64,000 bases of DNA from Pirellulales bacterium (GCA_963733035.1 CAVTBU010000008.1:416001-480000); one strand, 5' to 3'. Shown: positions 25,761 through 40,295, numbered from the stretch's first letter. Numbers and translations: made by a program. The notes: generated from the sequence alone by a model not told the origin.

Positions 25761-26066
25761 GCGATCCGGCGCTTACTTGCCTGAGACGCCCGACACGTCA
25801 AGTTTGCATTTCTTGCGGCCAGAATGGCCGAGGGACTTCGCCCCAATCAACGGACACTGCGGCCTAGGTATTACGCGATTTCATTGGTCCCGCCCGTACG
25901 ACCACTGGTCCCTACAATCGGTTATAACCGCAGAATTGTATGCCGCGCGTTCGTGCACGCCGTTCGCGCAAACGGGTTCTGTGGACAGTCGTCCGGCCGC
26001 GAATCAGGATGGAAGTTTCTGTCCTCCACCCGCGTTCACGACAGTCTCCACACAGCGATTCCCATC

Positions 26067-27422
26067 ATGACCGTCCGACGAGCGATTGCCTGCGGCTTTC
26101 TGATTCTCTCAATAGTACATGCCGATGCCTGGGCCGCGCAGCCGCTGTCGGTGCAGTTCCAGAACGAGTCGGGCCACGCGGATTCCGATGTCTACATCGG
26201 GTTCGTCGGACCAGGAGCCCTTAACGCCACGAACGCCGCCAATGGCACGCCACTGGCGGTCAGCCAATACGGCGCCGAACACTGGTACACGCTCGACTCG
26301 CTCCCTCAGGGCATCGACTTGGCGTCATTCAGCGGCCGCATTTATGTGGGCTACGGCAGCCCCTGGTCGTTTCCCTATGCCGGCTACGAACCTTCGCCGT
26401 CCTCGCCGAGCGACCCGAACTACCTGAATCGCTACGACAAGATGGAACTCACATACAACGGGAATCCGGCCGACGTCGCGGACACCACGTCGATCGACTA
26501 CTTCAGCGTGCCCATGCGGCTGAACGTTTTTCAGGGGGGCACGTCGGGCACGTTGAAAGGAAGCCTCTCGGCATCGTCCACGCAAACGACGGTCGACGCC
26601 GTGCGCGGCCTGACGACACCGCCGGACGCGGCTGTGGTGACTAACGGCAGCGGCGACTTCGTGCGTGTCATCGGCCCTAGCGCCTATCCACCAGCTCCCG
26701 GCTTGCCGGCGTCACCGTATGGCAGCTTCGATCCGTATCTGACCTACCTACGAGACGACTACGCACCCTCGCACGGCGGCACCATGGCCACGATCAAAGG
26801 TCATTTCAACGGCGTGGGTCCCTCGCCAGTGACTGCAGACACGATGGCGCAGGACTATAACTTCACGGCGACCATCGACGCCCAGAAGGATATCATTCTG
26901 ACAGGCAGCGCCACCGACATCGGTTCGCACACGCTCCTGTTTTTGCACGACGACCTGATCAATCCGTCGGGTATCTACGGCGCTAATCCGACGTTTTACC
27001 TGGATGGCTCGTCGATCGCCTCGACGCCGCAGAACGATGTCTACGGTTGGATCATCGGCGATTTGCTTGCGGGTTTGAACATCGGAGCGGTCGGGAGCAC
27101 GGTGCTCGACGGCCCAGTTCAGGTGGGCACCCTGGATAGCCAGGACTGGTTCACCCTTTCCAACCTGTTTTCCGGCCTACAGCCCGGACACGCGAACTAC
27201 TATAACCAGTGGGCGGCTTCGATGAGCACGATTTCCGAAGCCTATAATTTTGCCTACTCCGATCGTTTCGCGCACGTCACGGCTCCGCTCGACCCAGCGA
27301 AAGTTGACACGCTACAAATCGTGTTTCTCGGCCAAGTACCCGAACCATCGAGCTATGCGATGTTGGCGATGGGAGCGGGCTTGCTGCTGGGTATGCATCT
27401 TCGCGCGAAGCGCCACGGTTGA
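26067..27422 (+). CDS. PEP-CTERM protein with GH64/thaumatin-like beta-1,3-glucanase-type domain
   Basis: Signal peptide; SGRIYVGYG, PSSPSDPNY, DKMELTY, TSIDYFSVP and YNFAYSD resemble GH64 motifs; C-terminal VPEPSS + TM + basic tail. Confidence 0.72.
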   Translation: MTVRRAIACGFLILSIVHADAWAAQPLSVQFQNESGHADSDVYIGFVGPGALNATNAANGTPLAVSQYGAEHWYTLDSLPQGIDLASFSGRIYVGYGSPWSFPYAGYEPSPSSPSDPNYLNRYDKMELTYNGNPADVADTTSIDYFSVPMRLNVFQGGTSGTLKGSLSASSTQTTVDAVRGLTTPPDAAVVTNGSGDFVRVIGPSAYPPAPGLPASPYGSFDPYLTYLRDDYAPSHGGTMATIKGHFNGVGPSPVTADTMAQDYNFTATIDAQKDIILTGSATDIGSHTLLFLHDDLINPSGIYGANPTFYLDGSSIASTPQNDVYGWIIGDLLAGLNIGAVGSTVLDGPVQVGTLDSQDWFTLSNLFSGLQPGHANYYNQWAASMSTISEAYNFAYSDRFAHVTAPLDPAKVDTLQIVFLGQVPEPSSYAMLAMGAGLLLGMHLRAKRHG

Positions 27423-27769
27423 GGTCGAACTTCCGGGTCCAGCAACGGACGCTCTCTTGCGGCAGGTTGCTACGTCGTCGCGCTTGGCCATTGGCCGTCG
27501 TAAATTGTCCGGAAGTGTGCTCGTCGAGACAAATTCGGCGCGTTTGTGTGCCGCACATGGCGCGCAGCGGCGCACCCTTTCGAGGGAGCGTTCTCATCGC
27601 GAATGTCAAGAATGCGACAATTGTAGGGCTACTGCCTAAACCACCTTTCTCGGCACCGGAAATGCTCTTCTCCATCGGCGGTGGTAGCAAGTATTGCTTC
27701 TTGGCAGGTGTTTGCCAGGAAGCGCAAATGTGGCTTTTAATGGCTCCGATCGCGATCGAGGAGGGTGCT

Positions 27770-28459
27770 GTGTTGCGCTACTTGTCCTGGGCCCTATTGG
27801 GTTTGCTCTATGGTCTCATTTGCTCGACCGCGAGCGCCGAAGCGATCGTTTTTTTCAACAGTTCGCAACTTGCAACGACGGTAAACACAGGCGTGACGTC
27901 AGATACGATAAGCAGCAACGGTTATTTGTTCACATACACGCTAGACAAGTTATTTACCGGCGGCGTCGGATTGACCGAGCCAATCGGTCGCCCAATTGCC
28001 GTATCGTGGCCCAGCGGCGTCGAGGCGCAGGCGGTAACGAGCGGCCCGAACCCAAGCGGGGCGCGAATCGTTATTCAGCGGGTCGATGGCGATGTGTTTG
28101 ACCTGGCCGCGTTCACGGCAAAAATACTTGCAAACACGGGTGGAGCCGGCGCATCCTTTGAAATCATGCCGTCTCTCAATGGAGAAGACGCCTTCAGCGA
28201 TCCGCTCTACTTCGATGCCACCGGCTACTACGGCAGCACCTTTTCCTACACCTCGTCTCCCAACTATTTGGGCAGCACGGCGCTGCTGAAAGGATACGAT
28301 CGATACACCATCGGTCTATACGTCGATTTTGCATTGACGGCACTCACGCTGGAAGGCGCGCCAGTGGTGCCCGAACCCGCGACTATAGCGCTGGCAGCTC
28401 TGGGCACTGGCGCCCTGGCAGCGGTCGGCATGCGACGAAGACGATTGCGACGGTTTTGA
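27770..28459 (+). CDS. PEP-CTERM surface protein of unknown function
   Basis: GAGGAGG RBS, signal peptide ending ASA-E, and C-terminal VVPEPAT + TM + MRRRRLRRF. Confidence 0.82.
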   Translation: MLRYLSWALLGLLYGLICSTASAEAIVFFNSSQLATTVNTGVTSDTISSNGYLFTYTLDKLFTGGVGLTEPIGRPIAVSWPSGVEAQAVTSGPNPSGARIVIQRVDGDVFDLAAFTAKILANTGGAGASFEIMPSLNGEDAFSDPLYFDATGYYGSTFSYTSSPNYLGSTALLKGYDRYTIGLYVDFALTALTLEGAPVVPEPATIALAALGTGALAAVGMRRRRLRRF

Positions 28460-28536: not shown

Positions 28537-29481
28537 TCAAGGATGGGGTTGAAGCGTGCGCGAAAAGAATTGGTTGACCGCCGGCACGAGCCAATCGACG
28601 CGGATCAATGAGTGGGGGCAGTGGGCTGCCTTGCCCAGGCGAACGTAGCTCACGTCTTTGAGCCCGGCATTGTGGAGCGCAACGACGAATCGGTCCGCCG
28701 TTTCAACTCCGACCTGCGAGTCTGCGCCGCCGTATATCAGCAGCAAGGGGGGTGTTTGCGGTGAGATATGGTTGGCTGGCGAGGCCAAAGCGTACTTGGC
28801 GACGCGCGAACCACTCGGAGCACCTCCCAGGAATTGAGAGATTGCCGATCGGATCTGATTGTGGTCGTACTGATAGCGAAGATCGATGGGACCGCTGTCG
28901 CTAACCACGGCTTGCACCGTGCTGCAGTACTCTTGGTAGGGTCCGTCTCCCTCGAGATCGGCGGTTTTGTCGACCATTCCCAGCATCAACGCCAAGTGGC
29001 CGCCCGCTGAGTTTCCCCAGGCGCCGATCATGCGTGGGTCGATCTGATACCTTGCGGCATTGGCCCTCAGCCACCGAACGGCGCACTTGCAATCGTGAAG
29101 TGCCGCCGGGAATGGAGCTTGATTTGAGAGTCGGTAGTTGATTGACACGGCGACCATGCCAAGTTTTGCAAAGTCGATGATATTGCCCGGCGGGCGATTG
29201 TCGCCAGTTGAGAAGCTCGATTTGTCTCCTTCGAGCCAGCCACCGCCATGAATTACGATGATCGCCGGTCGCGGCTTGCCCCGATAGTCTTTCTGCATCG
29301 CGAGGTCGAGAACCCATTCTTTCACAGAACCTTCGCGGTATCGCAGGTTATGCAGCACGACGATGTCGTCGGCAGTACGCTCATCAGCGGCGGCAAGCGT
29401 CTTGACGACAATACTCTCACCGAGCGTGAGGAGGAGTAAGAAGGCGATGCCTGCGCGTATCAATGTGATATCGCGATCCAT
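28537..29481 (-). CDS. Secreted alpha/beta hydrolase (HSL/BD-FAE-like esterase)
   Basis: Signal peptide, HGGGW oxyanion motif, INYRL, GNSAGG nucleophile elbow, and C-terminal Asp (GGADSQV) and His (AAHCPH). Confidence 0.9.
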   Translation of the reverse strand: MDRDITLIRAGIAFLLLLTLGESIVVKTLAAADERTADDIVVLHNLRYREGSVKEWVLDLAMQKDYRGKPRPAIIVIHGGGWLEGDKSSFSTGDNRPPGNIIDFAKLGMVAVSINYRLSNQAPFPAALHDCKCAVRWLRANAARYQIDPRMIGAWGNSAGGHLALMLGMVDKTADLEGDGPYQEYCSTVQAVVSDSGPIDLRYQYDHNQIRSAISQFLGGAPSGSRVAKYALASPANHISPQTPPLLLIYGGADSQVGVETADRFVVALHNAGLKDVSYVRLGKAAHCPHSLIRVDWLVPAVNQFFSRTLQPHP

Positions 29482-29581: not shown

Positions 29582-30133
29582 CTACTTCGTTGACCGACGC
29601 CAGTCGGCGAGGGACAAAACCTCCGCGTAGGCAAACGCCAAAGCCGCCATCGCGGTACCATGGACGTCAGCGGCGGTTATCTTGTGGCCAGAGAAAGTTT
29701 GATCGCAGGTGGCGCAGGCGTCATGCACAACCTGGCAGCGATAGTCAAGGTCGGCGGCCGCGCGGGTTGTCCCTTCGACACACATGTGGCTCATCGCGCC
29801 GCAGATCAACAGCGAGTCGACTCCGAAGTGATCGAGAATCTCCTGGAGGTCCGTGTGCAGGAACGAATTCACCTGGTGCTTGGTGACGATGCGTTCGCCC
29901 TCGGCCGGTGCGACCGACGCGTGGATTTCGGCGCCACTCGATTCGGGCCGAAAGAATGGCGCCTGCGGACTCTCGAAGACGTGCCGCACGTGCACCAGCG
30001 GCCGCTGCTGGGCACGAAACTGGTCAACTAGCTCGGCAGCCGCGCGGCTGGCGGCATCAATGCCCGACAGCGGCAGTGCTCCGCCTGGGAAATAGTCGTT
30101 TTGCAGATCGATCACAAGCAGTGCCTGAGACAT
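29582..30133 (-). CDS. Isochorismatase-family cysteine hydrolase
   Basis: ALLVIDLQNDYFPGG, TKHQVNSF, GAMSHMCV and DACAT (Asp-Lys-Cys triad). Confidence 0.92.
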   Translation of the reverse strand: MSQALLVIDLQNDYFPGGALPLSGIDAASRAAAELVDQFRAQQRPLVHVRHVFESPQAPFFRPESSGAEIHASVAPAEGERIVTKHQVNSFLHTDLQEILDHFGVDSLLICGAMSHMCVEGTTRAAADLDYRCQVVHDACATCDQTFSGHKITAADVHGTAMAALAFAYAEVLSLADWRRSTK

Positions 30134-30193
30134 GGGTCTTACCTCGCGGACGATGATTTGTGCGGTGAACGGTCGGGGGTGCGTCAATTGCCT

Positions 30194-31306
30194 TCACGAC
30201 AGTCGGCCGGAAGCTTCGATCGGCCAGACGTCCACGACGCGGCCGTCTTCATGAACCACGATTTCGCGATGGAGGTTGCAGGTGGTGCAGGCATGGGTAG
30301 GAATCAATTGCAACAGTTCGCCGATTTTCCAATCGGGGGCGTTCCGCACGACGGCGTGTTCCTCGGAGAGGAAGTTCTTGATCTCCACTTCCGGGTAGTC
30401 GCGGATGCCCGGCGAGCCGAACTCGCAACCGGCCCCCTTAATGCCAATGTCGAGCACGGCTTTGTCCGGGGCAGGGCGGCTAATGACGCGAACCTGCACC
30501 GAAAGAGCAATTTCGAACTCCGGGGCCAGTCGCTTATATTGGCGGTCCATCGTCGCGTAGGTACCGGCCTGAATCTCGTCGATGCCTTCCATCGTGCCCG
30601 TGGCGTCGTAAGTGGCGCTCGAGCATCCGCTCACGCAATTGACGAGGATGCCGGCGGCTTCGATCATGCGACGCGTATCGATCGCCTGCTGCATGGCCGC
30701 TCGCGCACGCTCGCCGCGTTCGGCGCGATCGAGCACATTGACCAGATGCCCCTCGTACGCCTGCAAGCCTTCGAAGGCGACCCCCGGCAGATTGACCAAC
30801 TGTCGTGCCAGACGGAGAGCCGGCTCGCCCGGCGCGACGCCACAACGGCCCATGCCAATATCGACTTCGATCAACAGGTGCACGACCGATCCGGCGGCCG
30901 TCGCCGCGTTGGAGATCGCAACGGCTTGTTCAATGTGGTCGACCGCGACCGTGATACGACCCTGACCGGCCAGGCGGGCGAGCCGGGTTACTTTTGGCGC
31001 GCCAACAACCTGGTTGGCGATCAACACGTTTTCGATGCCATGCTCGACAAGGATCTCGGCTTCACTCAGTTTGGCACAGGTCATGCCAACCGCTCCGGCG
31101 GCAAGCTGCCGCTGGGCCAACGTCACGCACTTGTGATTCTTGAAGTGCGGCCTGAGCTGCGCCGGACGTTCTCGAAAGAACTCGGCCAGCCGGGCCAGAT
31201 TCCGGTCGCTGGCGGCGCGATCAAGCAGCAGCGTCGGGGTGTCGATTTCGGTCAACGGCTGACCGACTCTTGGATCGGCTGCCGCCTGGGAGACCTTTGC
31301 GGCCAT
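30194..31306 (-). CDS. DSD1 / D-threonine aldolase-like fold-type III PLP enzyme
   Basis: IDTPTLLLD, LRPHFKNHKC (PLP Lys), EVDIGMGRCGV, LQAYEGH, SEEHA and IPTHACTTCNLH (metal ligands). Confidence 0.9.
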   Translation of the reverse strand: MAAKVSQAAADPRVGQPLTEIDTPTLLLDRAASDRNLARLAEFFRERPAQLRPHFKNHKCVTLAQRQLAAGAVGMTCAKLSEAEILVEHGIENVLIANQVVGAPKVTRLARLAGQGRITVAVDHIEQAVAISNAATAAGSVVHLLIEVDIGMGRCGVAPGEPALRLARQLVNLPGVAFEGLQAYEGHLVNVLDRAERGERARAAMQQAIDTRRMIEAAGILVNCVSGCSSATYDATGTMEGIDEIQAGTYATMDRQYKRLAPEFEIALSVQVRVISRPAPDKAVLDIGIKGAGCEFGSPGIRDYPEVEIKNFLSEEHAVVRNAPDWKIGELLQLIPTHACTTCNLHREIVVHEDGRVVDVWPIEASGRLS

Positions 31307-31483
31307 GACCGTTTCTCATTCGTGGTGAAGGTGTGTGGAAAACATGGCGGTCGACGACCGACGCTCTATCTTATGCTAACCGCACTGGCCCCGAGGCACC
31401 ATCCAATCGGCAGGGCAGTTCGACCTTTGAAAGTCGAACGGGGATTGATTCGCCAACCAGGCGACTTCGAGCACGCTGCCAGA

Positions 31484-32437
31484 TTAGTGACTGGCCGTGT
31501 CGTAGCGCATGATCAAGATAGTCGACGACAGCACAATGGCCGCTCCCACGAGTGCCAGGGGTTGCAGCGACTCGCCGAGAATCGTCACGGCAAAAAACAC
31601 GCCGAACACCGGCACCAGGTAGAGCGAAGCCGAGGCCACGGTAACGCTCAAATGTTCGAGAACATAGAAGAACAGCAACATCGAAGCGCCATACATAAAC
31701 ACGGCCAGAAACCCGAACGCCAGCCATGCCGGCCCATCCATTGCGCGCAACGAACTAAAATCAAACGGTTCGACCCAGATCAACAGCGGTAGACTTGCCA
31801 ACGACGCCATGATGTAGCTGAAAATCAGGATCTCCACTTCACCAAAGCGTTCCAAGAGGCCCTTGCAAAACACGTTGTAAAAGGAGGATCCAAAACAGCC
31901 GACCAGGATCAGCAGGTTGCCAATCAAGTAGTCGCTTCGCAACAGTGCCGCCTGTTTCAGGTCTCCCGTCGACATCAACATCACACCAGCCAGCCCAATC
32001 ACCAGGCAAGCAATGCGGAGCCGCGAAAGACGCTCGTGCAGCATCACGGTTGCCAACATTGCCGTAATGACGGGGATCAGCAGATTCAAGATGGCACCGT
32101 TGGAGGCCAGCGAGCGGTGTATCCCAGAGGTCATTCCCAGTTGCGCGAGCACCTGCCCCAGCACGCCGGCCAGCGCGAATCGCCACCAATCGTTCCACGT
32201 CGGCCGCACACTGTTCGGGTTGCGACGCCGTTGCCAGATGAGGATCGGCACGAGCAACAGCGTGGTGATGTAAAACGGCAAAAACGTGATCGCGATCGGC
32301 GGCCAATCGCGGGCTTCCAGCACTTTGACCGCGGTTCCCTGACCGGCCCAAATCAAGTTCGCCGCCGCCAGGATGAACAAGTACCACAGTCCGATGACTC
32401 GGCGCGGAACGACGGCGGCTTCCGTGGAGTGATCCAT
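31484..32437 (-). CDS. DMT/EamA family transporter
   Basis: About 10 TM helices in two repeats, with ANLIWA, MLHERL and LVPVFGV..ILGE. Confidence 0.9.
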   Translation of the reverse strand: MDHSTEAAVVPRRVIGLWYLFILAAANLIWAGQGTAVKVLEARDWPPIAITFLPFYITTLLLVPILIWQRRRNPNSVRPTWNDWWRFALAGVLGQVLAQLGMTSGIHRSLASNGAILNLLIPVITAMLATVMLHERLSRLRIACLVIGLAGVMLMSTGDLKQAALLRSDYLIGNLLILVGCFGSSFYNVFCKGLLERFGEVEILIFSYIMASLASLPLLIWVEPFDFSSLRAMDGPAWLAFGFLAVFMYGASMLLFFYVLEHLSVTVASASLYLVPVFGVFFAVTILGESLQPLALVGAAIVLSSTILIMRYDTASH

Positions 32438-32441
32438 CGAC

Positions 32442-33839
32442 TCAAGGCTCCAGAGTAGCGATGCCAAAGCGGTCGGCGCCCATCGAGCTGCCCCGAAAGA
32501 CATACGGCGCAACGCCGGTTTCGGCCCGATACTGCTCGACGATTTCGGACAGCGCGTCGTCGGCGCCTGCGCGGCCCAGCACCGCGACGGTGCCGCCCCC
32601 GCCGCCGCCGGTAACCTTGGCGCCAAAAATTCCTCGCTGAGGACCTTGCCGGCGTGCCAGCTCGACGAGCAAATCGGTCTCTTGGCAACCGAGGCCGGTG
32701 TCGGTGTAGGCCCAATGCGACTGATGCATCAGTTCCCCCATCAGCATCGCGCCCTCCAAGTTTTCGCCCGCCCCCAGCCCACGCAACAGCTCGACGAACA
32801 GTTGCACGCGGTAGTTCTCCTCCACTGCGTAACGCGTGCATGCGCGAACGCGATAGACTACATCCGGACGGGCCTGCGTATAGGGATCGACGTGAATACC
32901 GGCGGCGTTCAGATACTCCTGGCCGGACATCGCGGTTGGCAGCTCGTTCTCGAAGGTACGAAAAACCGAGGGCGACATGTTGGCGAGATAGCCGTTCCAG
33001 CGCGGATCGGTCCACCGAGCAATCGACGACGATGCATCGAGCGTGACCGGCAGCCCCTCACGATCGCAGATCAGCTTGTAGCCCATGAAACCAGCGGCCC
33101 GGGCGGCTTCGTATTCGATTCCGCTGACCTGATGGCTCACACCCGAGTCGATCCCCCAATAAGTCAGTCCGGCAGGCAGATGCACCAAAGGCAACGGATT
33201 GCATGGCTGGCAGACCAGCGGTAAGACGCAACCTTCGTCGCCGGAGATCACGGCGATTTGATCCATGATTCCGCACGCACTTTGGGCGATGACGTTTTCA
33301 GCCCATTGGCAGGCCTGAGCGAGTGCCACGCCGGCCAAATCGACGCCATAGGCATGGGCGGCGGCCTTCATCACGGCCACTTCCACCGCAGCCGAAGAAC
33401 TGACTCCCTTATTCAGTGGAACGTCTGATTGCACCAAGACGTTCATGCCCCGTTCTACCTGCTCTGGATGGTGTTGCTTGAGCCAGTAGAACAAGCCGAG
33501 CACGTAAGCCGTCCAGCGCACGCTTTCGTCGCCGCCGACCAGCCGACGCACCGTGTCCTCATCGGTCAGCTCGTCGAGCGTAAACGTGACGCGGTCTCGC
33601 CAGCCCAGAGCAGCCATTTGCGGATTGGAAAGCACAATGGTGCGATCTTGGCGCTGCTGAGCGGCGGCCCAGGTCGCTTCGCGAATCGTGGCTTCAAAGA
33701 CCAACCCGCCCGTGTAATCGTCGTTGCCGCCCATCAGGTCCAGGCGACCGGGCGAACGGGCAATGTGAATGGGTTGCTCGCGGTCAAACAACTCGCCACG
33801 CTGGCGCATTGCGCGTGCGGCGGAGACGAATTCGGTCAT
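32442..33839 (-). CDS. GHMP-family sugar-1-kinase resembling the plant L-arabinokinase (ARA1) kinase domain
   Basis: SPGRLDLMGG.DDY, VPLNKGVSSSAAVEVA, CGIMDQ, WGIDSG, ENYRV, GAKVTGGGGGGTV and GSSMGA..FG. ATGA overlap with the upstream gene. Confidence 0.88.
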   Translation of the reverse strand: MTEFVSAARAMRQRGELFDREQPIHIARSPGRLDLMGGNDDYTGGLVFEATIREATWAAAQQRQDRTIVLSNPQMAALGWRDRVTFTLDELTDEDTVRRLVGGDESVRWTAYVLGLFYWLKQHHPEQVERGMNVLVQSDVPLNKGVSSSAAVEVAVMKAAAHAYGVDLAGVALAQACQWAENVIAQSACGIMDQIAVISGDEGCVLPLVCQPCNPLPLVHLPAGLTYWGIDSGVSHQVSGIEYEAARAAGFMGYKLICDREGLPVTLDASSSIARWTDPRWNGYLANMSPSVFRTFENELPTAMSGQEYLNAAGIHVDPYTQARPDVVYRVRACTRYAVEENYRVQLFVELLRGLGAGENLEGAMLMGELMHQSHWAYTDTGLGCQETDLLVELARRQGPQRGIFGAKVTGGGGGGTVAVLGRAGADDALSEIVEQYRAETGVAPYVFRGSSMGADRFGIATLEP

Positions 33840-35026
33840 GCCAGCCCCTCGATGCTCGAAAGCAGGTAATCGACGGCCTCGTCGGAGAGACGAGGGTGAA
33901 TCGGCAGGCTGACGTACTGATGAAACAGGGCTTCGCAACGCGGACATTCGCCTTCACCGTGGCCCAACTTGCGGTAGGCCGTGGTCAAATGAATGGGCAT
34001 GTAGTGCGACCAGACCTTGATCTGATAGCGGGTATAGAGTTCCCACATGAAGTCTTCCTTGCTCAGGGGAAACTCCGGTTCGACGAGCACGCAAAATACG
34101 TGATAAACGTGGCTGTTTTCTGGAGCCACGTGGGGCATGGTTAATCCGCGGACCTGGGACAGACGCCGGCGATAGGCATCGGCTATCTGCTGCCGGCGCT
34201 GGTTGAAGCCATCCAGCTTAGCCAACTGCACCAGGCCGACGGCAGCCTGAACATCGGTCATGCGAAAGTTATAGCCCACGTCATCAAAATCAAGCAGCCA
34301 GTAGCGTTTGCCCATCGGCTGGGCCGCTTCGTCGATGGGAAGGTACTTGCCTTTGGGGTCGTAAGTGCGGCAACAGAGCGACCGGTACGAGATCAAGCGC
34401 TCGTGCAGCTGGGGATCGTCGGTGGTGACCATGCCGCCTTCGCCCAACGTGACCATGTTCTTCTGTTGATGAAAGCTAAAGACGCCGATATCGCCCAGCG
34501 TGCCGGCTTTGCGTCCACGGTAGGTTGCCCCGGCCGTATGGGCGCAGTCCTCGACGATCCGAATGCCGCGCGGCCGAGCCAAGTCCGCGAGCGCGTCCAT
34601 GTCGGCGCACTGGCCGTACAGGTGCACCGGCAGAATCGCCTTGGTGCGAGGCGTGATTTTTCTAGCCACATCGACTGGATCGAGGTTGAAAGTACGAGGG
34701 TCGATGTCGGCAAAGACAACTCGAGCGCCGCGGGCGGCAATGGCGTTGGCCGTCGATATCCAACTGAGCGGCGTCGTAATGACCTCGTCACCCGGCCCGA
34801 CGCCGCAGGCGATCATGGCCAGTTCGAGGCCGGCGGTGGCGGAGGTCACGGCGAGCCCGAATTTCGTCCCGCAGTACCTAGCAAATGCGTCTTCGAATGC
34901 CTTGACCTTCGGCCCGCACGAGGGGGCCGAGGCCTCGAGCACCTCCAGCAGCGCCGCTCGCTCTTCCTCGCCGTAGCTCGATCCATGATTGAACTCGAGC
35001 TCGTAAAGTGCCTTAGGCAGTTGCAT
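33836..35026 (-). CDS. DegT/DnrJ/EryC1/StrS family sugar aminotransferase
   Basis: SATAGL, VGPGDEVIT, PVHLYG, EDCAH, FSFHQQKN..GEGG (PLP Lys), GYNFRM and SLPIHP. Confidence 0.93.
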   Translation of the reverse strand: MQLPKALYELEFNHGSSYGEEERAALLEVLEASAPSCGPKVKAFEDAFARYCGTKFGLAVTSATAGLELAMIACGVGPGDEVITTPLSWISTANAIAARGARVVFADIDPRTFNLDPVDVARKITPRTKAILPVHLYGQCADMDALADLARPRGIRIVEDCAHTAGATYRGRKAGTLGDIGVFSFHQQKNMVTLGEGGMVTTDDPQLHERLISYRSLCCRTYDPKGKYLPIDEAAQPMGKRYWLLDFDDVGYNFRMTDVQAAVGLVQLAKLDGFNQRRQQIADAYRRRLSQVRGLTMPHVAPENSHVYHVFCVLVEPEFPLSKEDFMWELYTRYQIKVWSHYMPIHLTTAYRKLGHGEGECPRCEALFHQYVSLPIHPRLSDEAVDYLLSSIEGLA

Positions 35027-35903
35027 CAATGGCCCTTTCGATCACTTGTTGGCAGGTGGGAAGCGGCGTACGGCAAACCGTGCGCAGTCGATCGGTCGCC
35101 AGAAAATCATCGCGTCCGCGTGGTGCTCGCCCGGGCACCGCGGAGTCTTGCGGCACAATCAACGATGGCTCCGCGCCCAGCCGGGTGGCGATGGCCCGCG
35201 CCAGTTCGTAGCGCGACATTTTGTCGCTTGCGCCGACGTGAAAAATGCCCCTTGCGTCGGGGTTGGAGCTTAGCTCGAGCAAATACGCGCACAGGGTGCC
35301 GACGTCGATCGGATTGCGAAACTCGTACGTGGGAGAAACGATCTGGTTTCCGGCCTGCAAATTGGCCGTTACTTTCTCGAGATACGAATTACCTCGCCCC
35401 AGAGCGCTACGCCCTAAAACCAGCGACAGTCGCACGATCGTGGCTGAAGGGAGCAACTCGGCAACAGCTTTCTCTGCCCGGGCTTTGGTCTGTCCGTACC
35501 AGTTGGGCGGCGTCGGCGGGTCCTCTTCGTGATAAATTCCCTTGGTGCCATCGAAGACGGCGTCGGTCGATGTGAACAGCATTCGTGCGCCACTTCGGGC
35601 GCAGCATTCCGCCACATGGATCGTGCCTTGCAGGTTGATCCGCTCGGCCAGGTCTCGCTCGCGCTCACAACGGTCGATGTCGGACAGCGCGGCCAAATGG
35701 GTGACGAATTGGGGCCGAACACGATCAAAGGCCTCTAGAACGCTGGGCCGGTCGGTGATGTCGATGGCTAGCGACCGATCCGCCTCGCCGGCGATTCGCG
35801 AGCCGCGCCAAACTTCGAAATGTGGCTCGGCGGCCAGCGTCCAGCGCGAGCCAACAAACCCGGTCGCTCCGACAATTAACAGCCGCGGTCTTGTGTTCGG
35901 CAT
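35013..35903 (-). CDS. Extended SDR, RmlD-like (dTDP-4-dehydrorhamnose reductase family)
   Basis: GATGFVG, STDAVFDG, YGQTK (YxxxK) and APRGRD. Confidence 0.9.
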   Translation of the reverse strand: MPNTRPRLLIVGATGFVGSRWTLAAEPHFEVWRGSRIAGEADRSLAIDITDRPSVLEAFDRVRPQFVTHLAALSDIDRCERERDLAERINLQGTIHVAECCARSGARMLFTSTDAVFDGTKGIYHEEDPPTPPNWYGQTKARAEKAVAELLPSATIVRLSLVLGRSALGRGNSYLEKVTANLQAGNQIVSPTYEFRNPIDVGTLCAYLLELSSNPDARGIFHVGASDKMSRYELARAIATRLGAEPSLIVPQDSAVPGRAPRGRDDFLATDRLRTVCRTPLPTCQQVIERAIDATA

Positions 35904-35921
35904 GGAATGATCAACCACCGC

Positions 35922-37497
35922 TCAAGGCATCTTCCGCTCGGCCGCCACAAGTTCCATCGTGCGCCACAAACGTAGCGGATGGTCTGTTTGCACCAGGTCG
36001 ATGCCCCACTCGATGGCCTGGCGATAACCCTGCACATCGACAAAAAAAGGGGCGTCCGAGAACACCTGAATCCCGTGAGCGTGGCAGTGTTCGATATACG
36101 ACTTCGATAACACGCGCCACGGCGTATCGACGGCGTACGGCTTAAGCGTCGTGGCCAGCGCATCGACTTGTGCAAGCGACCCCGCGCCTGGCATCGCACG
36201 AATGCGCGAGTCGATCTGCTTGAGTTTCGCGAGATAACCGGCGCCCTGATAGACAACCGTTCGCTCGGCCAGCCCGTGTTTCTCAAGCGCGGCGGCCAGC
36301 GCTGCGGGCGGAATATCCTTGGCGTCAAAATACAAGTTGACGTCCTTGGGAACGGCGGCCAAAAACTGTTCCAAGGTGGGCACATGCGCGCCTTCGAACC
36401 GACGACCAAACCAACTGCCGGCATCGAGCCCGGCGACGGTCGCGCTGGTCGCCTCACGGATCGGCCCCTTGCCCGTTGTCGTGCGATCAAGTTTGCCGTC
36501 GTGCAGCAGAAAGTATTCGCCGTCTCGCGACGGCCGAACGTCAAACTCGACGTAGTCGGCGTGGAGACGATAGGCCTTTTCGAACGCTGCCAGCGTGTTC
36601 TCCGGTGCATAGCGCGAAGCCCCACGATGACACGCGAACTTCACGGGACGCGGCTGCAATGCTCGATCGAGCAGGTGGGCCACGACTTCCTCGGGCACAT
36701 CGCTCAAGAGAAAATCCTGCGCCCGCCGAAGTGGCCTTGTCCCAAAAACTCGGCCCGTCCTGCTTGCCGGTTGCGTCAGCAAACACCTTGATTCCTCGAG
36801 CCCGCAACGAGGCGGCAATTGCCGGTGTGACATCCTCGGCGTGAAGTGCCACCGCCGCCGGCTGCAATTCGTCGAGCAGCGTGGCACAATCATCGGTCGG
36901 CCGACCTTGTTTGTCGAAATCGTTTGCGGAAACGTCGTTTGGCATGACTGCCAGGGTGCGCTTGGCAACGTCGCGTACGCCCCGCAGAGTGTCTTTGTCG
37001 CCCAAGACAAGGACTTGGCGCTCCATTCCGGCAGCCTTGATGGTCGCCACGAGTGCGTCGGCGGCGACGTCTTTACAGTCGAGGCATAGGTTGATCTTGT
37101 CTTTCGCGAGCGCCAGGCACTCGTCGAGCGAGAGCATCCGTGTTCCGCGAAAGCGTTTGGCAAACCAGCTTCCAGCGTCGAGTTTTTGGAGCTGCTCGAG
37201 CGTGTGATCTGCGACGACGCCTGCGCCATCCGTTTTGATATCCAGACGCTCGTCGGCGAACAGGACGTGATGGCCATCTTTTGTACGACGAACATCGACT
37301 TCGACCCACTCGACGCCGTCGTCGATGCACAATCCGATCGCCCGCTTGGTATTCTCGGGCGCCAGATGGGCCAGGCCGCGGTGGGCCACGACTGCGATGC
37401 TGCGCGGTGGCACAAGGGGCTGGAAGAAATCAATCGCCGGCTCTGCCATGGCCAAGGAACAGACGAGGCAAGCCAATCCTGCTGCAAACGGTTTCAT
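35922..37497 (-). CDS. Secreted tandem glycerophosphodiester phosphodiesterase (two GDPD domains); probable 1-nt insertion near 36716
   Basis: Signal peptide + AHRG..APENT..EVDV in one frame, and DFLLSD..CHRGASRYAPENT..EFDV..LHD..QTDHP in the next. The frames join as ..SAGA-DFLL after removing one G. Confidence 0.88.
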
Positions 37498-37703: not shown

Positions 37704-40295
37704 TCATTTCGTCGAACCTGTCCACTGAAGAGCAGCGGCGGCCAGGCGTCCGAGATCGCTTGTCGGGCCCTGTGCTGCCAGGTCCTTAAGTAGTTGAACT
37801 GCCGCAGGCGTGTCGATTTGGGCGAGCAGTGCCAACGCACGTCGCAATGTCAATTCGCTTTGGACGTCGGGTTCGCCGGCCGCCAATCGCTTTTGCAAGA
37901 TCTGTTGGCGTAGATTCTCTTCGACCATTTCACCTTCGGTTGCGCGGTTGGGATCGACGACGTCCTTGACCGGGCGCAGCTTCTCGCCCAACAAATCGAC
38001 GGCATCGTCGGCCGCGGCAGCCAGTTCCCACATCGCCCGATAGGCCGCCGTGCCGTCGTCGCCAGCCAGATCGTCCCAAAGTGCGGCCGGTGTTTTTCCC
38101 GAGGCCGGCTCAGTCGGCCGCAGGTCCCATTGGTAGCCAACTCCGTCGGCGCCGCCGGTCAGCAGCGATTGGCTATTTCGGCCAAAGTCGACGTGATACA
38201 CGTGGCCCAAATGCTTGCCGACGCTCCAGACCTTGTCGCCGCTGGCTGCGTCGTAGAGGGCGACGTTTCCGTTCATGCTGCCCGTCGCCAGCCACAAACC
38301 GTCCGGAGAAAAGCTCACCGCCCCATAGACGAAACGCCCGTCCACGGCAAACTGGCTTTGCAGTGTCATGCGATCCGCCTGCCAGACATGCACCGTGGCA
38401 TCGAGGTGAGCGGTTGCCAGCAGGCCGCCCTGGGGGGCATAGCAAACCGTGTACATGCGAAGGTCGTTAGCGTCTGGGAAGACGGGCTTCAAGTCGATTT
38501 CTTGCCGTATTTTCCCGCTTTGACCATCCCAAAGTCGCACGGTCGAATCCCAACCGGCCGTGGCCAACTCGCCAGTGGGTCCAAAAGACAGACCATAGAT
38601 GCTTTTGTGGGGGAGTTCGGCAATCTGCTCGCCGGTGGTCAGATCCCAAAGATAGGCAAACGACTGGCGGAACACGCCAGCCGCCAGGCGGCTTCCGTCG
38701 TAGGAAAACTGCAATGCTTCGACCGTTGACTTCGGATCGCGACCGCGCGGCCACTCCCAGCGATGCACAACTTTTCCGGCGGCCATATCCCAGACCGTGA
38801 CCTGATTGTTGCCCCCTTCGCCCCCGCCGCCAGCCAACTGACGGCCGTCCGGCGAGAACGTCAGTTGGGCATAGCGAGTTCCAGGTAGATCAAACTTGCG
38901 CAGTTCGACTCCCCGATCGGCGTCCACGATGCGGATGGCACCCCAACCATCCTGATAGGCTGCGGTGCGGCCGTCGGGTGAGGCAGCCACGACCTCCGAC
39001 CCCCACACACCCTGAGGTAGTTCCATTTGCTTGTGAGCGGCCAGATCCCAACGCCGCACGGCTCCGTCCCATCCCGAGGAGTAAAGCATCTTGCTGTCGG
39101 CCGTGAATGCCAGGGACCAGGGGTACCAAACGTGTCCCTTCATCTCCGTAATTTGTGCGCCATTGAGGGCATCCAAGAGCCGTATCTTGTAGTCCGTGGC
39201 GCATACCCCCACCCAATTGCCATTGGGGCTGAACGCGACGGCTGAGGTGTAGTTTTCATGGGGATCATTAAGTGGGAGCACTTGAGACCAGAGTGGCCGC
39301 GCGGACCGGACGTCGTACATTCGCACGGCGCTGTCGCGCTCGGTGGTTACGATCTGCTTGCCGTCCGGTGAAAAGTCCATGCGAACCAGCCGCGATTTGA
39401 GTGGAATCCGCCGCTGTTGCTGGCCATCTTTCGCGTCGATGATCCGAATGAATTCCGGGTTGTCGCTGGTTACCACGGCCAGGTTGCGTCCATCGGGTGC
39501 AAAACGAACGTACCCATAAGGGCCGCCAAACTGCAGTCGGTCCCGATTCTGGTTTGGCATTTCGTGGGGATGATTTTCGATCTCAAACGCGCTGCCGTCA
39601 TTGCCATGAATCACGAGGATGCCCCCCGCGCTGCCGAGCGCCATCTGTCCGTCGGCCGTGACCTCGATTGAGCGATAGTCTCCCGAGCGCCCGGCAAAAA
39701 AAGCGGCCGGTCCTGCGGCATCATCGCCCCCCCGGTCGATCACCACATCTTGATGGCGGCCGGAGCGGGTCTCCCAAATTATCAGTCCACCGGTTCTTCC
39801 GGGAGTGTAGAACTCCTGGCTGTCGGACGTAAACGCGATGGCGTGGATTCCGTAGGCAGCTCCCGGCAAGCGAAAACCGCAGTCATTTGTCATCGCCTGC
39901 CAGCGCCGTTTGCCGGTGGCTGTGTCCCAGGCGATGACCTCGTCGCCCAATGTGACGAGCGTCTTTTCATCGGGAGACAGGGCCATGTCGTGAACTCCCG
40001 AGGGAGCATGAAACCGAGTCGTGCCGAGCCGAAATCGGGCACCCTCGGGCAGCGGATCACCAAGTGCGTCGTTCTTGGGCTGCGGTGGATTGCCGGCAGC
40101 CGATTGATCGGGGGGATTTTCTGCACCGAGCACGGCTGTTCCGCCTCGTTCAAGCAGGCAGCGCACCAATGGACCAGACGGAGATACCAGGAGAAGGGCG
40201 AAGCCAGCAATGGTGAGGCGAGCCAAGAACCGAAAACGTTGTGAAGATACTCGCGATGGACAGTCACCCGAGACAACCGAATGATTTGTGCGCAA
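37704..40295 (-). CDS. Secreted WD40-repeat beta-propeller protein (planctomycete type)
   Basis: DALGDPLPEGARFRLGT lead-in, many FSPDG/WD repeats, and a C-terminal helical (HEAT-like) domain LWDDLAGDD..AYRAMW. Confidence 0.9.
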   Translation of the reverse strand: MRTNHSVVSGDCPSRVSSQRFRFLARLTIAGFALLLVSPSGPLVRCLLERGGTAVLGAENPPDQSAAGNPPQPKNDALGDPLPEGARFRLGTTRFHAPSGVHDMALSPDEKTLVTLGDEVIAWDTATGKRRWQAMTNDCGFRLPGAAYGIHAIAFTSDSQEFYTPGRTGGLIIWETRSGRHQDVVIDRGGDDAAGPAAFFAGRSGDYRSIEVTADGQMALGSAGGILVIHGNDGSAFEIENHPHEMPNQNRDRLQFGGPYGYVRFAPDGRNLAVVTSDNPEFIRIIDAKDGQQQRRIPLKSRLVRMDFSPDGKQIVTTERDSAVRMYDVRSARPLWSQVLPLNDPHENYTSAVAFSPNGNWVGVCATDYKIRLLDALNGAQITEMKGHVWYPWSLAFTADSKMLYSSGWDGAVRRWDLAAHKQMELPQGVWGSEVVAASPDGRTAAYQDGWGAIRIVDADRGVELRKFDLPGTRYAQLTFSPDGRQLAGGGGEGGNNQVTVWDMAAGKVVHRWEWPRGRDPKSTVEALQFSYDGSRLAAGVFRQSFAYLWDLTTGEQIAELPHKSIYGLSFGPTGELATAGWDSTVRLWDGQSGKIRQEIDLKPVFPDANDLRMYTVCYAPQGGLLATAHLDATVHVWQADRMTLQSQFAVDGRFVYGAVSFSPDGLWLATGSMNGNVALYDAASGDKVWSVGKHLGHVYHVDFGRNSQSLLTGGADGVGYQWDLRPTEPASGKTPAALWDDLAGDDGTAAYRAMWELAAAADDAVDLLGEKLRPVKDVVDPNRATEGEMVEENLRQQILQKRLAAGEPDVQSELTLRRALALLAQIDTPAAVQLLKDLAAQGPTSDLGRLAAAALQWTGSTK

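Follow-up and report, generated by a model that had tools for sequence, protein, structure and literature searches.

The Gene Cluster

The window, a 64,000-nucleotide stretch of DNA from a Pirellulales bacterium, carries seven genes between positions 29582 and 37497, all on the minus strand, and a profile scan assigned them to the families named in the original prediction made from the sequence (Table 1). The first five were predicted to overlap or to lie less than 20 nt apart, and the spacing read from the sequence agrees: 18 nt separate the stop of the GDPD gene (35922) from the ATG of the SDR gene (35903), the SDR and DegT genes overlap by 14 nt, the DegT and kinase genes by 4 nt, and the DMT gene starts 4 nt after the kinase. 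The operon had also been described as free of nucleotidyltransferases and glycosyltransferases, and none was found among the seven genes and the nine flanking ORFs scanned. A promoter scan returned two promoter-like sites against 1.9 expected, and the interval between the DMT and DSD1-type genes had no clear terminator in a terminator scan.

Table 1. Genes of the cluster, in the order of transcription.
Feature	Position	Strand	Family and place
Tandem two-domain GDPD-family phosphodiesterase	35922..37497	-	PF03009; accessory
RmlD-like extended SDR, 296 aa	35013..35903	-	PF04321; core
DegT-family PLP aminotransferase, 396 aa	33836..35026	-	PF01041; core
GHMP kinase, 465 aa from ATG 33839	32442..33839	-	GHMP N, C, and GalK-signature domains; core
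EamA/DMT transporter, 317 aa	31484..32437	-	EamA; core
DSD1/D-threonine-aldolase-like PLP enzyme	30194..31306	-	PF01168 + PF14031; neighbor
Isochorismatase-family cysteine hydrolase	29582..30133	-	neighbor, outside the cassette

A Recurrent Four-Gene Cassette

We collected 160 loci anchored on the DegT gene (135 clusters at 95% nucleotide identity) and counted neighbors among loci with room for them; 73 loci count as wide. The SDR accompanies DegT in 141 of 143 loci with room, the kinase in 145 of 148, and the DMT transporter in 117 of 122. The SDR, DegT, GHMP kinase, and DMT genes form a cassette that recurs in Planctomycetota and Acidobacteriota and is carried by many uncultured soil bacteria. 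The gene set is kept together in other genomes, on which the original prediction had made itself depend, and the four-gene core of the seven-gene pathway that it proposed is conserved; the DSD1-type and cysteine hydrolase genes, each at a single locus of the 160, fall away (see the last section).

The GHMP Kinase and Its Sister Module

The kinase has the GHMP N and C domains and the catalytic Arg/Asp pair of GHMP anomeric kinases (R32 and D193, in 67/67 sequences), and its sugar motif reads GGNxDY, compared with GEHTDY in GalK and GGIADY in the AbGHMP type. In a sequence comparison with PDB, AbGHMP ranks first (E 7e-109; PDB 9ULX/9ULY), while its structural model matches galactokinases best, and AbGHMP is not in the Foldseek list for that model. 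‘L-arabinokinase’ is the source label of 16 among the 120 homologues listed. GalK residues R28, D37, Y38, and D174 are kept and Y223 is present in 62 of 67, while E34 is replaced by Gly in all 67, as in the sister clade. The protein does not classify as a galactokinase: the E-H pair is G-N in 67/67, and TIGR00131 scores 120 against a cut-off of 227 bits. With the GGIADY-type motif of L-arabinokinases (ARA1/AbGHMP type), it shares the Gly but has Asn in place of Ile. The cassette kinases are a clade apart from the GalT-linked one, at the end of a long branch with full support.

The sister kinases, ten proteins from Acidobacteriota (38–43%) with the motif GGIADY or GGFADY, like AbGHMP, are probable L-arabinokinases. 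Their loci encode a GalT-like protein (10/10), GalE (6/10), XylA (2/10), and the same IMPase-like family that occurs with the cassette (10/10, 55–59%), and some also have pentose ABC, GalM, and GH51-like genes. Because the sister module sets GalT and GalE beside a sister kinase and the same IMPase-like family, DegT and the SDR would take the place of the C4-inverting GalT and GalE. The resemblance extends to the Leloir pathway (GalK-GalT-GalE) and to plant L-arabinose salvage (ARA1 with a UDP-sugar pyrophosphorylase), in which entry by a GHMP anomeric kinase likewise precedes C4 chemistry; those pathways, however, rely on GalT, GalE, or a pyrophosphorylase, whereas the cassette has a transaminase and a ketoreductase.

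The DegT Aminotransferase

Membership in the DegT family is clear from PF01041 (394 bits) and from the PLP aspartate (D160) and catalytic lysine (K189), both found in 80/80 sequences. The lysine, together with a score of 157 against 423 for the RfbH model, led us to reject an E1/RfbH-type dehydrase. The best-scoring models are PseC, ArnB, and WecE, all with scores below the cut-off (255 vs. 631 bits for the ArnB equivalog), and all three enzymes make a C4 amine of the L-arabino/D-galacto type. The window protein is 36% identical to E. coli ArnB and keeps the equivalents of W89, H185, K188, and H329; in the aligned rows, the sugar-pocket residues W89, H185, and H329 are found in 79/79, 80/80, and 79/79, respectively. 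Section 2.5 of PMC5936713 describes the roles of these three residues in ArnB, where W89 excludes N-acetyl sugars. Elsewhere, the DegT proteins depart from ArnB, with Ala replacing W34 in 78/78 rows, mostly Ser or Ala replacing P16, Gln replacing I187, and Tyr replacing R229. We take W34 to be the uracil-stacking residue of ArnB, with P16 and R229 presumably also contacting the nucleobase. The cassette resembles the arn operon, which makes UDP-L-Ara4N for lipid A, in having a DegT enzyme with the same predicted sugar, but it would run in the opposite direction and without UDP, and its loci lack ArnA and ArnT.

One locus of the 160 (L046) bears directly on this comparison. Its DegT, 71% identical and with Ala34 kept, lies among genes for a CDP-glucose pyrophosphorylase (RfbF), a CDP-glucose 4,6-dehydratase (RfbG), a flippase-like membrane protein, a Wzc-like protein, and glycosyltransferases. 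It is therefore probable that members of the subfamily accept an NDP-4-keto-6-deoxyhexose, and this weakens the argument from Trp34 and supports a 6-deoxyhexose. The L046 protein nests within SDR-linked clades and carries D223G and G226R, and, when it was used as bait, RfbF/RfbG were found at 0/80 metagenome loci. The cassette DegT is predicted to be a 4-amino-sugar-1-phosphate transaminase.

The RmlD-like SDR

The catalytic triad of the dTDP-4-dehydrorhamnose reductase RmlD is T104/Y128/K132, as given in PMC4832382. The SDR keeps the GxxGxxG motif and the triad (T or S in 68/68, Y136 and K140 in 69/69) but is only 26% identical to RmlD and falls short of the equivalog (161 vs. 224 bits). Unlike RmlD, which has D105, Y106, and W153 and an rmlABC context, it has all three residues replaced (Y106 by Ala in 68/68 and W153 by Leu in 68/69). 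The cofactor motif is mixed (of 69 sequences, 31 have D, 10 have S, and 8 have N at position 35, and 44 have R at position 36), and it was therefore not used to set the direction. RmlD-type enzymes are ketoreductases, and the SDR is predicted to be a 4-keto-sugar-1-phosphate reductase. By analogy, its product would be L-arabinose-1-phosphate, not xylose-1-phosphate, if the facial selectivity of RmlD is kept.

Neighboring Genes

The cassette loci are nearly devoid of machinery for nucleotide sugars. RmlA, RmlB, RmlC, GalT, GalE, ArnA, and ArnT are each found at 0/160 loci, an ArnC-like gene at one, and a nucleotidyltransferase (RfbF-like) at one, in line with the original prediction that homologous loci would not routinely include the latter; glycosyltransferase domains occur near 3/80 genome loci (L007, L029, and L046). 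The neighbors instead point to uptake. In the 73 wide loci, a TonB receptor is present in 50, DeoR/GntR regulators in 56, a secreted (α/α)6 family in 58, and an IMPase-like phosphatase gene in 20. XylB adjoins 4/160 loci and XylA two, penicillin-amidase-family acylases occur at four and HpcH aldolases at nine, and Gfo-family genes at 11, mostly at some distance from the core. Sequence searches of Pfam and PDB with the secreted family gave nothing above threshold; in fold, its model resembles AGE/cellobiose epimerases (Z 27.6, rmsd 3.6, 335 aligned) as well as GH76 (Z 23). In L215, a member of the family is fused to a GDPD. A PDB sequence search with the IMPase-like protein likewise gave no match. 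With a TonB receptor, a regulator, and secreted CAZymes or six-hairpin enzymes, polysaccharide-utilization-type loci resemble most wide cassette loci; they differ from the planctomycete version, window included, which lacks the receptor, the regulator, and the (α/α)6 family.

At L215, an SSS symporter (PF00474, E 1.6e-67) replaces the DMT. At L227, a PgtP/GlpT/UhpT-like MFS transporter adjoins SDR-DegT, and the 96%-complete genome has no kinase match at E<=1e-30, which is what uptake of a sugar that already carries its phosphate would predict. Two further genomes (L183 and L184) have a TonB-GDPD-DeoR-kinase-DMT arrangement in which the kinase shares the N39/E244 signature of the cassette kinases, and no DegT of the cassette subfamily was found there (best 36–39%); the signature is, therefore, not specific to deamination.

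In the genome of the window and three of the four other planctomycete carriers tested, the IMPase-like gene is absent. XylA, XylB, GalT-like, and UDPGP-family genes are present in the window’s genome, which has GT2 genes elsewhere. Counting cassette carriers only, XylA is encoded in 5/5 planctomycete genomes and AraA in 1/5.

The exported GDPD of the original prediction holds as to family and a signal-peptide-like N-terminus (judged by eye), but the gene is accessory (22/160 loci; 15/73 wide loci) and its ORF is not intact. Its length is 1576 nt (3n+1), and the frame changes near 36720–36710, whereas the tandem GDPD is a single ORF in nine planctomycete relatives. None of the contig pieces listed from four runs spans the break. 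An assembly error is favored over a real lesion because similar single breaks occur in core genes of several relatives on long contigs (L006, L013, L021, and L076).

A Proposed Route and Its Alternatives

We consider it about an even bet (probability ~0.5) that the cassette takes up a 4-amino-4-deoxy sugar, probably L-Ara4N (4-amino-4-deoxy-L-arabinose), and converts it to a pentose via 1-phosphates without a nucleotide. The steps are inferred from gene co-occurrence, families, residue changes, and neighboring gene sets. (i) Release and uptake: secreted phosphodiesterases and (α/α)6 enzymes would cleave phosphodiester or glycosidic bonds, for example, those of Ara4N on the lipid A of other bacteria, to set free the sugar or its phosphate, and the TonB receptor (in Acidobacteriota) and the DMT, a predicted inner-membrane importer, would bring it in. 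(ii) Conversion: the GHMP kinase would make Ara4N-1-phosphate, DegT would transfer the amino group at C4 to a keto acid, providing nitrogen and leaving a 4-keto-pentose-1-phosphate, and the SDR would reduce C4 to give D-xylose-1-phosphate (or L-arabinose-1-phosphate). (iii) Exit: where present, the IMPase-like phosphatase may free xylose for XylA/XylB; in the window’s genome, which lacks it, the XylA, XylB, GalT-like, and UDPGP-family proteins could take the product. Against L-Ara4N stand polar residues near C5/C6 (N39 in the kinase and Q188 in DegT) that could suit a hexose and the fact that xylose genes adjoin just 4/160 loci; against import, DMT proteins are often exporters.

The same sequence of uptake, phosphorylation, deamination, and reduction may serve another 4-amino sugar, such as Fuc4N (4-amino-4,6-dideoxy-D-galactose) from O-antigens or capsules, possibly via an N-acyl form; we give this perhaps half the credence of L-Ara4N. 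RfbF and RfbG beside the L046 DegT make CDP-4-keto-6-deoxyhexose, and D-fucose, with the ring stereochemistry of L-arabinose and no C6-OH, fits the E34-to-Gly change in the kinase; the acylases and HpcH aldolases are also in keeping with such a sugar. However, the sister kinases and the IMPase-like family found with both kinase groups are part of a xylose/pentose module, XylB/XylA adjoin four loci, no 6-deoxyhexose isomerase/aldolase cluster recurs among the gene clusters listed, and W89 disfavors C2-N-acetyl sugars.

The original prediction offered two options, an NtdABC-like route to an exported amino sugar and salvage or catabolism of a phosphodiester-linked one. Salvage fits better, and the former is unlikely. 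In it, imported L-arabinose would be phosphorylated to Ara-1-phosphate, oxidized at C4, aminated, and dephosphorylated, for export by the DMT or for the cell’s own envelope; free 4-amino-pentoses can cyclize to glycosidase-inhibiting imines. NtdABC/KabABC make kanosamine from glucose-6-phosphate by C3 chemistry and export it, and the NtdABC operon encodes a sugar-6-phosphate dehydrogenase (Gfo/Idh/MocA), a DegT protein, and a HAD phosphatase. The likeness lies in a DegT enzyme that would act on a nucleotide-free sugar phosphate beside an oxidoreductase and, in some cases, a phosphatase, and the logic of dehydrogenase, DegT, phosphatase, and exporter is parallel; the sister clade of the kinase holds probable L-arabinokinases, DMTs often export, and arabinose could be provided by glycosidases together with TonB receptors. 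The cassette differs in its anomeric kinase, its RmlD-like C4 enzyme, its uptake genes, and its IMPase-like phosphatase, and NtdA ranks low among the PDB matches of DegT (143 bits vs. 242 for perosamine synthase). Further points against this direction are the SSS symporter replacing the DMT (L215) and the sugar-phosphate-type MFS replacing both DMT and kinase (L227), the absence of ArnA and ArnT, the long kinase branch away from the GalT-linked clade, the ketoreductase nature of RmlD-type enzymes, and the common DeoR regulators, which mostly repress sugar catabolism.

Much less probable is that the cassette makes an ordinary NDP-amino sugar for a surface glycan and depends on a nucleotidyltransferase and glycosyltransferases whose genes lie elsewhere. 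DegT and RmlD family members usually act on NDP-sugars, according to PMC9309667, L046 shows such a use of the DegT, and the window’s genome has UDPGP-family and GT2 genes outside the cassette; yet the near absence of both enzyme types at the loci, the loss of RmlD Y106 and W153, and the uptake-like context argue against it.

Returning to L-Ara4N, a literature search on the pathway, the sister module, and the kinase found no description of them, nor a catabolic route for L-Ara4N; it covered few subscription journals. L-Ara4N on lipid A gives bacteria resistance to cationic peptides. With slightly less confidence than for the route itself, we propose a possible first breakdown route for this sugar, by which soil Planctomycetota and Acidobacteriota might strip it from the envelopes of dead cells by means of dedicated phosphodiesterases and the six-hairpin family and recover nitrogen and carbon, with ArnB-like and RmlD-like enzymes that work without a nucleotide replacing the GalT/GalE steps of a Leloir-type arabinose route. 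Soil recycling of the rare amino sugars in bacterial envelopes has been mapped only sparsely, and the cassette leads to a compact hypothesis of three enzymes that can be tested directly. If true, families of NDP-sugar enzymes work on bare sugar-1-phosphates, a secreted (α/α)6 family with no Pfam match gains a role, and enzymes for releasing or detecting lipid A-bound Ara4N could follow, of relevance to studies of polymyxin resistance. Such genes are currently labeled galactokinase, perosamine synthetase, and dTDP-amino-galactose transaminase, labels that are probably wrong.

Genes Outside the Cassette

A single pathway of all seven genes, in which the DSD1-type aldolase and the cysteine hydrolase would catalyze later steps, is highly improbable and already largely refuted by gene content: each of the two genes occurs at just 1/100 loci with room, and DSD1 orthologues (59–82%) lie in other contexts in 11/11 relatives examined, with no cassette DMT, kinase, or isochorismatase beside them. 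DSD1 matches were found in 16/40 related genomes, including all three of the same genus that lack the cassette. In favor of the seven-gene pathway are the shared direction of the genes, the last gaps (177 nt from DMT to DSD1 and 60 nt from DSD1 to isochorismatase), and a DSD-like gene (34%) that lies ~4.5 kb from one cassette (L080), but direction says little here because an esterase gene (28537–29481) and a WD40 gene (37704–40295) are also on the minus strand and the last two genes travel separately.

Gene Content and Conservation of the Cassette

The seven minus-strand genes belong to the families originally named for them, as confirmed by sequence and domain searches, and are separated, in order, by an 18 nt gap, overlaps of 14 and 4 nt, and gaps of 4, 177, and 60 nt. 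To establish which of them travel together, the DegT aminotransferase was used as a query against GTDB species genomes, returning 119 related stretches, of which the best 80 (67–85% identity), chiefly MAGs of Acidobacteriota and Planctomycetota, were kept; a variant DegT from locus L046, used as a second query, returned 490 metagenome stretches, of which the best 80 were likewise kept. Clustering at 95% nucleotide identity reduces the 160 loci to 135 clusters. In loci whose contig extends far enough, the RmlD-like SDR lies upstream of DegT in 141 of 143 cases, with the GHMP kinase (145/148) and the EamA/DMT transporter (117/122) downstream. The DSD1-type and isochorismatase genes each occur in 1 of the 160 loci. 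Of 40 related genomes, 16 contain a DSD1 match; among them are all three from the same genus, which are themselves devoid of DegT. No cassette DMT, kinase, or isochorismatase was found within 1.5 kb of DSD1 at 11 fetched DSD1 loci. Thus, the unit consists of four genes, joined by GDPD in 22 of the 160 loci, and the DSD1-type and isochorismatase genes, which the original prediction had included in the pathway, fall outside it. Judged by gene neighborhoods, the four genes make up a genuine pathway that is conserved and, it appears, has yet to be described: at abstract level, no published account of it was found.

The distribution is patchy: the cassette occurs in 0 of 400 other Planctomycetota (E ≤ 1e-90), 15 of 250 same-order genomes (E ≤ 1e-80), and 6 of 24 same-family genomes, and a kinase with >50% identity only in the center genome of a 401-genome Acidobacteriota sample. 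In the closest relative (L001:9908-10001; 85% DegT identity), the SDR is absent between GDPD and DegT, which are only ~90 nt apart. Tandem GDPD is fused to the SDR (830 aa) at L232:9549-12041, possibly an artefact of a frameshift-rich assembly, and GDPD is fused to a propeller-containing protein at L020:18207-21116. Separately, DSD1-type orthologues at L199 and L203-L205 immediately follow a conserved membrane protein gene whose product resembles, by eye, a sodium:solute symporter, which suggests a separate uptake/aldolase unit.

The window GDPD, first of the seven genes (1576 nt), has tandem domains, a signal-peptide-like start, and a frame change near 36720-36710; nine planctomycete relatives encode tandem GDPD in a single ORF, and no contig bridging the site was found among the public contigs checked. 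The source assembly comprises 6.6 Mb in 10 contigs and is 92% complete, and the window's closest relatives are labeled Planctomycetota, Planctomycetia, or Pirellulales, which makes a planctomycete the likely source. The N-terminal domain (window 36541-37497) reads VLFAD vs. FLLHD in the C-terminal domain and is less conserved in relatives (37–64% vs. 62–77%); by these two signs, it may be catalytically degenerate.

Nucleotide-Sugar Genes

The absence of NDP-sugar machinery, originally noted for the operon, extends across nearly all loci: searches with proteins from E. coli and from L046, a set narrow as regards glycosyltransferases, detected RmlA, RmlB, RmlC, GalT, GalE, ArnA, and ArnT in none of the 160 loci and RfbF/RfbG in a single one. 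The 110 proteins scanned against Pfam came mainly from the closer half of 211 candidate neighbor ORFs; GT domains were located at L007, L029, and L046. By its gene content, the cassette is very unlikely to be one for surface-glycan synthesis.

The L046 DegT (71% identical) lies amid Wza/Wzc-like genes, a flippase-like membrane protein, and GTs, with a CDP-glucose pyrophosphorylase and a CDP-glucose 4,6-dehydratase both above model cut-off; the predicted product would be a CDP-4-amino-4,6-dideoxyhexose. The cassette kinase was not found in this genome. In a rapidly built 29-row tree, the L046 DegT nests between SDR-linked clades; it carries D223G and G226R at sites elsewhere invariant. We read L046 as a later recruitment of a cassette-type DegT; judging by this case, the subfamily can probably accept an NDP-sugar.

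Kinase and a Sister Leloir-Like Module

The best PDB match of the kinase is AbGHMP, a bacterial GHMP kinase (9ULX/9ULY), at E = 7e-109 vs. 1e-25 for galactokinases. Ten Acidobacteriota AbGHMP-type kinases, 38–43% identical, occupy a different module containing a GalT-like and an IMPase-like phosphatase gene in 10/10, GalE in 6/10, and XylA in 2/10, with a pentose ABC transporter, GalM, a GH51-like gene, or XylA/XylB in some. This sister module, for which no description was found in the published literature at abstract level, would probably convert L-arabinose to Ara-1-P and, through UDP exchange and C4 epimerization, to xylose-1-P and xylose. The same IMPase-like family is present in 31 of 160 DegT loci (55–59% identity), and XylB/XylA adjoin four of the 160; because of these shared features, DegT and SDR appear to stand in place of GalT and GalE, both pairs acting at C4. 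The cassette would resemble a Leloir route operating on an amino sugar and without nucleotides, or a reversed arn pathway. On the features tested, it belongs with none of ArnB, RmlD, GalK, and NtdABC.

In alignment, the kinase keeps the catalytic and C3/C4-binding positions of GalK; GalK E34 is Gly in 67/67 cassette kinases and in the sister clade, from which cassette kinases depart at N39 and E244. A search of the assembly with E. coli GalK (E ≤ 1e-4) matches the window kinase (32442-33839) alone; GalT-like and GalE genes are located elsewhere.

Substrate of the Cassette

The best models for DegT are PseC (311 bits), ArnB (255), and WecE (233), all below cut-off; these three enzymes make an L-arabino/D-galacto C4 amine. 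L-Ara4N is linked to lipid A through a phosphodiester. DegT retains ArnB W89, which PMC5936713 describes as shutting out N-acetyl sugars in ArnB, and has Ala for ArnB W34 in 78/78 rows. The SDR retains the catalytic triad reported for RmlD in PMC4832382 and has lost RmlD Y106 and W153.

We favor the view that some 4-amino sugar is taken up and deaminated (probability roughly 0.75). That the sugar is L-Ara4N specifically, which PMC9309667 describes as added to lipid A, is an evenly balanced proposal; it is put forward because the predicted substrate is a 4-amino sugar of L-arabino type, with neither N-acetyl nor C6-OH, tied to phosphodiesterases and xylose genes. XylA occurs in 5/5 and AraA in 1/5 of the planctomycete carriers tested, with no phylum background rate to set against these counts. 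The source genome has XylA, XylB, GalE, two GalT-like genes, and one UDPGP-family gene, which could be takers of a pentose-1-phosphate.

Several observations count against L-Ara4N. Loci L183 and L184 carry a TonB receptor, GDPD, DeoR, kinase (47–48%), and DMT and keep the N39/E244 signature, yet DegT and SDR are missing there and no DegT of the cassette subfamily is present in either genome; in the source genome, the receptor, the six-hairpin family, and the IMPase-like gene were not found. L184 is also neighbored by GH76 and GH43. A different 4-amino sugar, e.g., of 6-deoxyhexose type, is favored by the L046 context and is a less likely contender than L-Ara4N.

Direction of the Pathway

Among 73 wide loci, each with >5 kb on either side, a TonB-type receptor is present in 50, a DeoR or GntR regulator in 56, an unnamed secreted-like family in 58, an IMPase-like gene in 20, and GDPD in 15. 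Three genomes with a sister DegT (47–50% identity) show single-case swaps. L215 has the order SDR, DegT, sodium:solute symporter, kinase, and six-hairpin/GDPD fusion; L227 has a PgtP/GlpT/UhpT-like MFS protein (no model reaching its cut-off), then SDR and DegT; and SDR and DegT are also carried on the short contig L228. No kinase match was found in the L227 genome (96% complete; E ≤ 1e-30) or the L228 genome (90% complete). These swaps fit import and would also suit DegT and SDR acting on a sugar phosphate. That the cassette runs in the biosynthetic direction is improbable.

Secreted (Alpha/Alpha)6 Family

Members of the unnamed family (430–690 aa, with signal-peptide-like starts) occur in 95 of the 160 loci, up to four per locus, in five paralogous subfamilies with 26–40% identity between them; Pfam gave nothing above cut-off. 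A model built from 13 sequences (pLDDT 78) folds as a six-hairpin, or (alpha/alpha)6, barrel nearest to AGE/cellobiose epimerases (Z 27.6), then GH76/88/105, a likeness of predicted structure only that says nothing on function.

Coordinates of features in the window and in homologous loci (L-numbers)
Feature	Location	Strand	Basis
Unnamed secreted family members	L015:4959-6254, L064:13516-15570, L011:16177-17820, L043:383-1909, L068:13608-15209		
Six-hairpin/GDPD fusion	L215:4586-6688		
Sister Leloir-like module	L185-L194, e.g., L193:6127-11886, L185:3110-15139		
DegT in exopolysaccharide locus with RfbF and RfbG	L046:6712-20037		
PEP-CTERM protein with GH64 beta-1,3-glucanase-like domain	window 25824-27422	+	domain scan
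PEP-CTERM protein, adjoining the preceding gene	window 27419-28459	+	domain scan
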